DNA of 6,178 nucleotides from Octopus sinensis (lineage: Eukaryota). Under the pieces are notes generated by a model that was not told the DNA's origin, searched no databases, and worked only from the letters and a program-made list of their open reading frames with translations. This document shows, piece by piece, positions 124-6,178 of the stretch (position 1 is its first letter; every line of letters starts with the position of its first letter). The translations under genes were made by a program, and so were the position numbers. The stretch is from assembly GCF_006345805.1 (NCBI RefSeq), contig NW_021829438.1:1-6178 (forward strand), given 5' to 3'.

Positions 124-159
<36 letters not shown>

Positions 160-186
160 GCCATCTATCAAACTATATATATATAT
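124..186. repeat. (TCTA)n then (TA)n microsatellite
   Basis: Directly visible tandem TCTA units at about 124-159 and a TA run at 174-186. Confidence 0.9.
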
Positions 187-210
187 ATACTAGCTACGGC
201 GGTACATATT

Positions 211-243
<33 letters not shown>

Positions 244-292
244 GGCCCCTGAGCAAGGATGACACGCAAATTCGTGAAGCGGTCCATATTTT
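187..292 (+). ncRNA. U6: U6 spliceosomal snRNA, full-length copy (probably a retroposed copy rather than the functional locus)
   Basis: Hand alignment to human U6 as recalled gives 97/106 identities without gaps. ACAGAGA box at 227-233, AGC triad at 239-241, 3' CCATATTTT ending at 292. Upstream is (TCTA)n/(TA)n with no recognisable PSE, and a LINE tail follows directly, which favours a retrocopy. Confidence 0.95.
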
Positions 293-370
293 CTAAATGG
301 CTGTGCCCCAGCATGGCCACAACTCGTGAGCTGAAACTAGATAAAATAAAAAAAAATAAAAAATTAAAAT
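187..370 (+). mobile_element. U6-LINE chimeric retroposon (U6 head, 49-nt LINE 3' tail, A-rich tail)
   Basis: 293-341 matches the reverse complement of 5710-5758 (LINE 3' UTR) at 44/49 nt, ungapped, followed by (TAAAA)n-like tail 342-370. No clear TSD; flanks are microsatellite. Confidence 0.85.
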
Positions 371-450
371 ATGTCTATCTATCTCTCTGTCTTTCTGTCT
401 GTCAATCTTTCTGTAAGTAAATAATATTTATCAGACGATAATAGACACAA

Positions 451-3171: not shown

Positions 3172-3550
3172 GAGTGGCTGTGTCGTAAGGCGCTTGCTTA
3201 CCAACTACAAGGTTCCTGGTTCAGTCCCACTGCGTGGCACCTTGGGCAAGTGTCTTCTACTACAGCCTCGGGCCGACTAAATCCTTATGTGTGGATTTGG
3301 TAGACGCAAACTGAAAGAAGCGTGTCGTATATATGTATATATATGTATATGTGTGTATATGTTTGTGTGTCTGTGTTTGTCCTCCAACATCGCTTGACAA
3401 CCGATGCTGGTCTTTTTACGTCCCCGTAACTTAGGCCGAAAGAATATGTACTCCGCTTACAAAAAAATAAGTCCTGGGGTCGATTTGCTCGACTTAAGGC
3501 GGTGCTCCAGTATGGCCGCAGTAAAATGACTGAAACAAGTAAGTAAAAAG
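3172..3550 (+). mobile_element. tRNA-derived SINE, family A (octopus OK/OR-like), lacking about 7 nt at the 5' end
   Basis: A-box-like TGGCTGTGTCG 3175-3185, B-box-like GGTTCAGTCCC 3218-3228, internal (TA/TG)n tract, LINE-type tail GGCGGTGCTCCAGTATGGCCGCAG...CTGAAAC 3498-3536. Colinear with the reverse complement of 4687-5096 except for a 16-nt deletion after 3434. The exact family name is not verified. Confidence 0.9.
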
Positions 3551-3663
3551 TGTATGTATGTCTCTTCTGTGTTTAATCATTTGAATTCTTCCTCTGTAGA
3601 AGGAGCTGGTTTCTAACAATGATACAAAGCTCCATCTTTGAAATGTAGATAACTAAAACAATG

Positions 3664-4119: not shown

Positions 4120-4135
4120 TTCCGAACGGAATGAA

Positions 4136-4365
4136 GGCGGTGGGCTGGCAGAAACGTTAGCACGCCGGACGAAATGCATAGCGGTATTTCGTCTGCGTTA
4201 CGTTGTGAGTTCAAATTCCGCCGAGGTCGACTTTGCCTTTCATCCTTTCGGGGTCGATAAATTAAGTACCAGTTACGCACTGGGGTCGATGTAATCGACT
4301 TAATACCTATGTCTGTCCTTGTTTGTCCCCTCTGTGTTTAGCCCCTTGTGGGTAATAAAGAAATA
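4136..4365 (+). mobile_element. tRNA-derived SINE, family B, with a Meta/Sauria-like central domain
   Basis: A-box-like TGGCAGAAACG 4146-4156, B-box GAGTTCAAATTCC 4207-4219, core GACTTTGCCTTTCATCCTTTCGGGGTCGATAAATTAAGTACC 4229-4270 resembling the MetaSINE/Sauria SINE core as recalled, A-rich end. TSD GGTATTTT at 4112-4119 and 4366-4373. Confidence 0.85.
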
Positions 4366-4686
4366 GGTATTTTATATTCTTTTTGTGACTGCATCATGTC
4401 GCATAGGGCGGTAGTACTTTGATGACATTTTTGGGCAGCTGCTAATCACATGTATGATGTTTTCACAGAAATTGTCAATCTATATTTGCGGTCGCATCTT
4501 GGAACTCCAAAGGCTTCTCTGTCGCTTTTATTGATTAAGGGATTTAGTGGCAATCTTTTCTTCTTGGATTGCAAATGCATAACCTTCGAAGTGTGATGTG
4601 ATGTAGCGGTTATGAGTTCAAGAGAGGCTTCTCGTCATTCCAATGTTATCATCTTCTTCAAGTCTACGAGAAACATACCCATGCAT
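4366..4686 (-). pseudogene. R4-like ORF remnant: linker, degraded CCHC zinc knuckle and RHD motif
   Basis: MHGYVSRRLEE...ITSHFEGYAFAIQEEKIATK, then CDRKYRL..IIHVISSCPKMSSKYYRPMRHDAVTKRI (RHD codons at 4393-4401). Contains stops and frameshifts. Confidence 0.8.
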
Positions 4687-5096
4687 ACTCTTTTACTCTT
4701 TTACTTGTTTCAGTCATTTGACTGCGGCCATGCTGGAGCACCGCCTTTAGTCGAGCAAATCGACCCCAGGACTTATTCTTTGTAAGCCCAGTACTTATTC
4801 TATCGGTCTCTTTTGCCGAACCGCTAAGTGACGGGGACGTAAACACACCAGCATCGGTTGTCAAGCAATACTAGGGGGACAACACAGACACACAAACATA
4901 TATACACACACTTATATATATATATATAATATATAGACAGGCTTCTTTCAGTTTCCGTCTACCAAATCCACTCACAAGGCATGGTCGGCCCGGGGCTATA
5001 GCAGAAGACACTTGCCCAAGATGCCACGCAGTGGGACTGAACCCGGAACCAAGTGGTTGGTTAGCAAGCTACTTACCACACAGCCACTCCTGCGCC
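4687..5096 (-). mobile_element. tRNA-derived SINE, family A, full length
   Basis: Starts GGCGCAGGAGTGGCTGTGTGG, A box 5076-5086, B box 5033-5043, internal microsatellite about 4885-4935, LINE-type tail 4705-4750, (GTAAAAGA)n end. Flanking direct repeat CCATGCAT at 4679-4686 and 5095-5102 (CC overlaps the SINE's first GG). Removing it restores KMTMHGYVSRR in the R4 frame. Confidence 0.93.
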
Positions 5097-5682: not shown

Positions 5683-6145
5683 GATTGATTTGATTTTGAT
5701 TTTGATTTTTCCAGTTTCAGCTCACGAGCTGTGGCCATGCTGGGGCACCACCATTTGGTTTTCTACATGATTTTTACCCTACGAATGCTTTTTAGCAACT
5801 GCCATTTGGTGCATGAGAGAGTTCGATGCAGCTGCCCTCATCTGCACCTCCTGCCGTGAAGTTGGTTCATCCGGGGCACCTGACAGGAAGAGATCCAGTC
5901 CTACTTTAAAGACATCCACATCTCACCATGCAGGTCCCTCAGGTCTTCGGGAGGATATTGAACACTCTGGGCCTCTGAAGCCCAGGAATCACAGTATCTT
6001 GTCCTACATCTTGATGGCAAATTTGGAGTCCTTGGTACCACGCAGTGCACCCGGTTCTGGCATTTGTGTGACTCTCGATGCCAAAGTTTGAGACAAGTCC
6101 TTCCAGGATCTTCCAGAGTAAATTATGGCATATCTTTCTCGCCTA
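5683..6145 (-). mobile_element. 5'-truncated LINE 3' end, CR1-like (ORF2 C-terminus, short 3' UTR, (AAAATC)n tail)
   Basis: Minus-strand translation with frameshifts: RRERYAIIY.WKILEGLVSNFGI...LGFRGP..FNILP.DLRDLHG.DVDVFKVGLDLFLSGAPDEP...RAAASNSLMHQMAVAKKHS* (stop 5779-5781), typical of invertebrate CR1-group ORF2 ends. 3' UTR about 70 nt, tandem tail 5683-5710. Clade assignment needs the RT domain. Confidence 0.88.
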
Positions 6146-6178
6146 AGATTTCTAGTGCTGCTTTCGGGAACTCGGGGA

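Follow-up and report, generated by a model that had tools for sequence, protein, structure and literature searches.

U6 snRNA and other small RNAs joined to the minimal 3' tail of a LINE in the genome of Octopus sinensis

Introduction

How does a complete U6 snRNA come to be fused to the last few dozen bases of a LINE? The question is raised by a locus in the Octopus sinensis genome (RefSeq assembly GCF_006345805.1), on contig NW_021829438.1. The window analysed here is the whole of that contig, an unplaced piece of 6,178 bases in a genome of 2.72 Gb. A preliminary description of the window offered two readings of the fusion, a one-off chimera with a non-L1 LINE or a member of an amplifying U6-headed SINE family. 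Joins of this kind would be raw material for new SINEs. The joining of a SINE head to a LINE tail has so far been inferred from finished families, while here the products of single events can be counted. Outside human L1, the choice between template jumping and RNA ligation as the source of chimeras is still open.

Results

The locus is a promoterless U6 copy on a minimal LINE tail

The head of the chimera is a full-length retro-copy of U6, variant A, on the forward strand (187..292). It matches the Rfam U6 model at 187-293 with 101.1 bits (model positions 1-105 of 105), ends at 292 in a run of four T, and equals the variant A gene of a tandem array at 101 of 104 positions. The layout of a functional U6 gene, with an element at about -77 and a TATA box at -30, is absent from this copy. 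Upstream lies instead a (TCTA)n + (TA)n microsatellite (124..189), the likely target of the insertion. Two linker bases, CT (293..294), which neither the sampled LINE copies nor the sampled U6 genes have at this position, lead into a minimal LINE tail on the forward strand (295..337), made up of AAA, hairpin 1 (298-319), hairpin 2 (320-333, with one pair broken in this copy) and GAAAC. On the same strand follows the simple-repeat tail (338..369, A-rich over 341-369) that belongs to the (ATAAA)n subfamily of the LINE, and then a TCTA/TGTC microsatellite (372..414) related to the upstream one (83% to 124-158). No clear target-site duplication was found around the chimera.

Positions 293-341 align with the opposite strand of 5710-5758, with 44 of 49 bases identical (BLAST inside the window, E 2e-18). 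The latter stretch belongs to a 3' fragment of the partner LINE on the reverse strand (5685..6178), which comprises the end of ORF2, a short 3' UTR, a two-hairpin tail (5714-5757) and an AAAATC repeat. The end repeats of the two pieces differ, (AAAATC)n in the LINE fragment versus (ATAAA)n-like in the chimera, hence each belongs to a subfamily of its own, and it is by coincidence that they lie near each other in the window. A weaker match, starting at the same point, links the chimera tail to the tail of a tRNA-type SINE, SINE A, on the reverse strand (4680..5089); this SINE tail has the same two-hairpin fold. These results agree with the preliminary description on the extent of U6, the LINE match and the A-rich tail, and a U6 chimera with a non-L1 LINE, laid out as a small-RNA head plus a minimal recognition tail whose boundary is common with the SINE tail, is borne out. 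A second SINE A copy lies in the opposite orientation (3172..3560, forward strand; 83% identical to the first), together with a forward-strand copy of SINE B (4131..4365). SINE A and SINE B have an inner motif in common (3474-3497 with 4280-4303), and genome-wide their 5' ends, frequently those of SINE A, are partners of U6 and 5S.

Scans of the window and 72 loci returned no Rfam family other than U6, tRNA and 5S, and a ribozyme or other Rfam family in the LINE tail was rejected on the same matches. The window locus is a dead pseudogene, a U6 retro-copy without a promoter joined to a minimal LINE tail.

Since the window is an entire small unplaced contig, the fusion might be suspected of being a misassembly. 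The same structure is found at dozens of loci on large contigs, however, and the window copy has private substitutions and flanks of its own, which leaves this explanation with next to no probability. A search of sequencing runs found at least half of the search words in 2 of 24 listed runs, one of them probably the source; as these words include conserved U6, such matches are no evidence for the junction.

U6-tail chimeras recur across the genome

U6 genes of three variants, A, B and C, supply the heads discussed below. Each variant has a gene-like locus with an element at -76 to -78 and a TATA box at -30. Variant A, which carries a UACG 5' loop, forms a tandem array on contig C1 (L037-L060, 141.83-141.96 Mb) of at least 28 genes spaced by about 1.1 and 1.4 kb (28 of 100 listed U6 matches), variant B is represented by the single locus L185 and variant C by the single locus L072.

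A 106-base junction query gave 792 candidates, of which 40 were scored. All 40 have E values of 7e-27 or lower, and in most of them the match crosses the junction, hence the fusion is present at no fewer than 40 loci; it is neither a one-off event nor single-copy at its junction. A gapped exact pattern found 36 junctions. Merging duplicates left a working set of 37 loci with U6 on the same LINE tail, biased towards window-like copies. Their heads are of variant A (n = 10), B (n = 11) or C (n = 8) or are cut at the 5' end (n = 8), 28 different junction strings occur among them, and head variants combine freely with four tail subtypes. Among the 29 full-length chimeras, only CpG transitions recur at least three times. 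Outside CpG, three pairs have one common transition and no pair has two, and the two core changes of the window copy are private to it. Upstream flanks are dispersed and unrelated (four matches among 60 upstream sequences). Candidate target-site duplications of at least 8 nt were detected in 12 of 36 loci versus 16% in shuffled pairs, nearly all of them microsatellite.

Could these copies nevertheless be a U6-headed SINE, amplified from one or few masters? At least 40 dispersed loci have one layout, their 3' tail is LINE-derived with a conserved fold, as in SINEs, and three junction strings recur three times each. Substitution sharing per pair is also slightly higher inside the family (0.106) than between groups (0.061 and 0.046), the comparison groups being picked differently, from copies selected for an unmutated 25-mer. 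In O. vulgaris, a published annotation lists a SINE family 'U-L1' of 52,753 bp (PMC13282606). Against amplification, the head variants are those of the U6 genes, 28 junctions occur in 37 copies, heads and tails mix, and private mutations in common are lacking. Identical copies (L010/L011 and L023/L024) have common flanks and are DNA duplicates. The tail itself does not need a SINE for its spread, as its 41-mer has 1,318 exact copies in the genome, and U6 stands 5' of only one of 90 sampled tail copies. No internal promoter is reported for snRNA genes (Kojima 2015, PMC4494074), and neither of the two marks by which SINEU is recognised there applies to the U6-tail copies: LINE copies that end in the same tail do exist, and no masters are evident. 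Instead the U6-tail copies show the features of U6/LINE chimeric retro-pseudogenes, a sense U6 complete to its T-run on a 5'-truncated retroelement with an intact 3' end. We consider an amplifying U6 SINE very unlikely and recurrent origin of the copies very probable, while a small U6-SINE sub-lineage could still exist among the unsampled copies.

The test first put forward for a SINE, a fixed junction plus shared U6 substitutions, proved misleading. The junction is fixed and the copies do share substitutions, yet the causes are a truncation hot spot in the LINE (see below) and the U6 genes. Because head variants A, B and C are ordinary gene types, the substitutions that copies share mimic subfamily diagnostics, and we rejected them as such. 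Annotators should be warned that a fixed junction together with U6 variants shared between copies can pass for a SINE family.

The partner LINE is inserted mostly as a bare tail

Intact copies of the partner LINE encode an ORF2 of 1,033-1,039 aa with only the Pfam domains Exo_endo_phos and RVT_1, and no RNase H, plus a separate ORF1 with a weak zinc finger. The ORF2 stop lies about 28 nt before the tail motif, and the short 3' UTR contains stem-loops and ends in a simple repeat. A homolog search with ORF2 returned no clade names, its best named match being an Argonauta protein (61%). We tentatively place the element in the CR1 group, from its C-terminal motif. The two-hairpin fold of the tail has 97% of cells paired and three pairs changed on both sides in 14 hand-picked tails from several families, values which are inflated by relatedness. 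Single-sequence fold z-scores range from -1.7 to -2.6.

To what extent tail copies continue upstream along the LINE was measured for all 79 tail matches on contig C1 and 11 on C2. Most (56/90) stop 0-12 nt upstream of the first hairpin, 48 of them at 3-8 nt. One stops at 13 nt, none at 14-30 nt, and the other 33 extend over 36 to >590 nt. Sequences upstream of the short copies resemble each other only via scattered repeats, and these solo tails favour A/T-rich sites. A control pattern anchored in hairpin 2 (n = 30) gave 17 copies whose upstream limit falls at the base or 5' arm of hairpin 1, two that stop earlier and 11 longer ones. Although its loci largely overlap those of the 90-copy sample, this control led us to reject an artefact of pattern ascertainment as the cause of the hot spot. 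The LINE thus inserts mostly as a bare tail that begins 1-3 nt before hairpin 1, and the minimal tail is delimited by this sharp truncation point beside the recognition hairpin. This hot spot is present with or without U6 and accounts for the fixed U6 junction.

Two side observations concern target sites. One 6-mer stands in front of three unrelated bare tails (L137, L220 and L247). It is the reverse complement of a LINE word 7 nt further up, which could be chance or pairing between RNA and target. A U6 chimera with another tail type (L182) and a bare tail (L121) occupy the same site in a common flanking repeat, before (TA)n, a sign of target preference.

U6 adjoins element ends

For an unbiased view from the side of U6, we took the 72 dispersed copies among the first 100 of 190 U6 matches. 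The 3' neighbour was the minimal tail in 31, and in 23 it was the 5' end of a full-length SINE or tRNA-like head (SINE A 15, one of them by eye; SINE B 6; other tRNA-like 2). The remainder adjoined another repeat (n = 7), an inner part of SINE A (n = 1), unassigned sequence (n = 3) or no element (n = 7). An inner part of the partner LINE was never found next to U6 (0/72). Had capture followed all truncations, zero internal joins would have a chance of 0.002 (13 captures on the LINE tail, hand count). Short SINE-A-type tails also occur on U6; their source was not found, and we count them against our preferred explanation. U6, and also 5S, is joined at variable inner points of an internally repetitive retroelement in L079, L082, L086, L100, L104, L114 and L118, hence run-off at a fixed end is not the sole route.

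These data also bear on a two-event origin, in which the U6 gene or pseudogene was there first and a solo tail was later inserted behind it. Solo tails are indeed common and favour A/T-rich sites. The upstream promoter element, however, present in 12 of 15 gene-like loci, was found in none of 87 chimeric loci, and the window flanks show no similarity to U6 gene flanks. Moreover, in 62 of the 72 dispersed copies a retroelement starts right at the U6 3' end, in sense wherever the partner could be oriented. The flank check proposed in the preliminary description therefore speaks against a truncated LINE behind a genomic U6, and we regard two separate events as extremely unlikely.

The same tail carries tRNA, 5S and U2

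Viewed from the 56 bare tails, six have a captured small RNA at their 5' side (95% interval 4-22%), namely U6 (n = 1), tRNA (n = 3), 5S (n = 1) and, by eye, a SINE B end with a T-run (n = 1). Whole pre-tRNAs occur on the bare LINE tail in L143 (Thr), L212 (Arg) and L228 (Cys), without CCA and with trailer and oligo-T, a proto-SINE layout with an internal promoter. 5S chimeras made up 27 of 30 sampled copies (L267-L296, of 53 matches), with the same partner classes, classed by eye. The captured 5S 3' trailers differ in length and so record the trimming of the precursor, and six 5S-tail junctions are all different.

A full-length U2 sits at the same tail point in L320, with possible CACC microhomology, and this single case weakens oligo-U as a strict requirement for an acceptor. 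The U2 sample, the best-scoring 30 of 48 matches, consists mostly of genes and gives no capture rate. Serial joins were also found. The tripartite chimera L234 (390-650) combines pre-tRNA-Trp, 5S and the LINE tail, and L287 combines 5S, 5S and another repeat. Linkage of tRNA and 5S genes was considered as the cause of L234 and discarded, since five other 5S-tail loci have no tRNA match.

Junctions bear on ligation and on jumping

Of the 37 U6-tail chimeras, 34 had junctions that could be parsed (three were left out). Extra bases explained by neither parent are present in 22 of these, and 12 are clean. CT(A) accounts for eight of the 22 extra linkers, and in 21 of 85 chimeras, across all three heads, the T-run is followed by CT; this CT may be the trailer of an unsampled U6 gene, as it is for 5S. 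T-runs are 4-7 long in 69 of the 85 chimeras.

One way to make such joins is recurrent ligation, in which an endonuclease cut at the base of hairpin 1 leaves a 5'-OH, RtcB attaches U6 by its cyclic phosphate, and the joined RNA is retrotransposed. RtcB needs exactly these two ends and makes precise joins, and the route is demonstrated for human U6/L1 (PMC6789731). Ligation would also account for the fixed point and for the lack of internal joins, and both the clean junctions and the T-run lengths fit it. The extra bases in most junctions do not, and neither does the range of partners. Pre-tRNA, pre-5S and U2 heads would be expected to lack a cyclic phosphate, and SINE and 5S 5' ends, the latter as joined in L234 and L287, to lack a 5'-OH. 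We hold ligation to be rather unlikely as the main source of these chimeras.

Template jumping, which we think likely in preference to ligation, is favoured by capture both at the stop and at SINE 5' ends, by whole sense precursors, by serial joins and by the extra bases. Clean junctions, T-run lengths and the recurring CT count against it. For the R2 reverse transcriptase, jumping requires untemplated addition, mostly of A (PMC8857657), and bases added in this manner would pair with oligo-U acceptor ends. The same source describes overhangs of at least three A as non-productive for R2, attributes L1 chimeras to ligation and doubts a physiological role of jumping.

From genome sequence alone, it is fairly likely that the dozens of joins were each made independently, by a LINE reverse transcriptase that left its template at the 5' end and then jumped to the 3' end of a small RNA. 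The thrice-recurring junction strings and the slightly higher sharing inside the family weigh against independent origin. The LINE family inserts mostly as a piece of about 55-75 nt. Its stop would be a real RNA 5' end, most simply that of a part of the LINE mRNA protected by bound ORF2p from 5'-3' decay. Such protection of a decaying mRNA agrees with the rarity of solo SINE A tails (3/37). The small RNAs, in sense and 3'-complete, lie precisely at the LINE stop or at the 5' end that full-length SINEs naturally have. The enzyme would add a few untemplated bases there, pair them with the acceptor 3' end, mostly Pol III oligo-U, and copy on, sometimes twice. Acceptor 3'-OH and 5'-triphosphate RNA ends are assumed. 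U6-headed products would be dead, because the U6 promoter lies upstream and is not copied, while those headed by tRNA and 5S, with internal promoters, could seed SINEs.

Discussion

Chimeras of U6 with non-L1 LINEs have been described in platypus, lizard, opossum and turkey; the partners are L2 and RTE, the SINEs that depend on them, and one CR1-like element (Doucet et al. 2015, PMC4476161). Those vertebrate chimeras resemble ours in that the U6 T-run is joined to a short 3' fragment, either of a stringent LINE or of its SINE (Mon-1, AnolisSINE2), target-site duplications are short or unclear, and template switching is proposed. In platypus, however, almost every U6-L2 copy is cut at the 5' end, whereas in octopus 29 of 37 retain a 5' head that can be assigned. 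Joins of U6 precisely to the 5' end of a full-length SINE are frequent here, unlike in those systems, and the available part of that paper describes neither a fixed LINE breakpoint nor a solo-tail hot spot. The human U6/L1 chimeras of Moldovan et al. (2019, PMC6789731) likewise carry full-length sense U6 ending in 4-8 T, but their L1 piece is variably truncated at no favoured site and joined precisely, in contrast to the fixed break and frequent linkers in octopus. Other small RNAs, tRNA and 5S among them, also form chimeras with human L1 (Law and Burns 2025, PMC11838501), where the tRNA partners are mostly antisense halves; here they are whole sense tRNA and 5S precursors with trailers.

SINEU elements are similar in placing an snRNA-derived head on a short retroposon, with recurrent addition of snRNA heads by template switch (PMC4494074). 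Their heads are U1 and U2, they have masters, and LINE copies with their 3' end are lacking, the latter two points being the opposite of our case. Template switching has been put forward as the origin of SINE heads and tails (PMC4824008, PMC5786205, PMC4758252, PMC7245038), CR1-type tails with conserved stem-loops serve mollusc SINEs (PMC4824008, PMC5786205, PMC4758252), and tripartite chimeras are described from fungi (PMC2104539). The three papers on mollusc tails infer the joining of heads from finished families, whereas the tRNA-tail and 5S-tail copies found here are unamplified products of single events.

The window locus itself is therefore of a known sort, and what is new is a LINE whose insertions are mostly bare tails, at which many small RNAs are collected. 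Searches of the open-access literature yielded no description of U6 chimeras in molluscs, a U6-headed SINE or a truncation hot spot at a hairpin base. In the O. vulgaris annotation, the 'U-L1' SINE family has two recent insertions, which together make up 353 bp, and another SINE family is labelled 5S; a word search of its main text gave no mention of snRNA or chimeras (PMC13282606). The consensus library of that species may already contain U6-tail sequence.

More tentatively, and on balance doubtfully, the LINE might produce a discrete tail RNP of about 55-75 nt, the footprint of ORF2p, as its main inserting form and as a universal adaptor for reverse transcriptase jumps to pre-tRNA, 5S, U6, U2 and SINE RNAs. 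If so, about a tenth of minimal insertions would be ready-made proto-SINEs, and the octopus genome would be a standing SINE nursery, with in vivo evidence for end-to-end template jumping over ligation in stringent LINEs.

Two minor observations concern the small-RNA loci themselves. In L070, L083 and L089, U6 has a nearby inverted partial U6 copy and no retroelement partner, and L070 and L083 have a common 3' flank. The sampled U2 loci (L297-L326) include many near-identical genes, both dispersed and clustered, with two or three promoter types.
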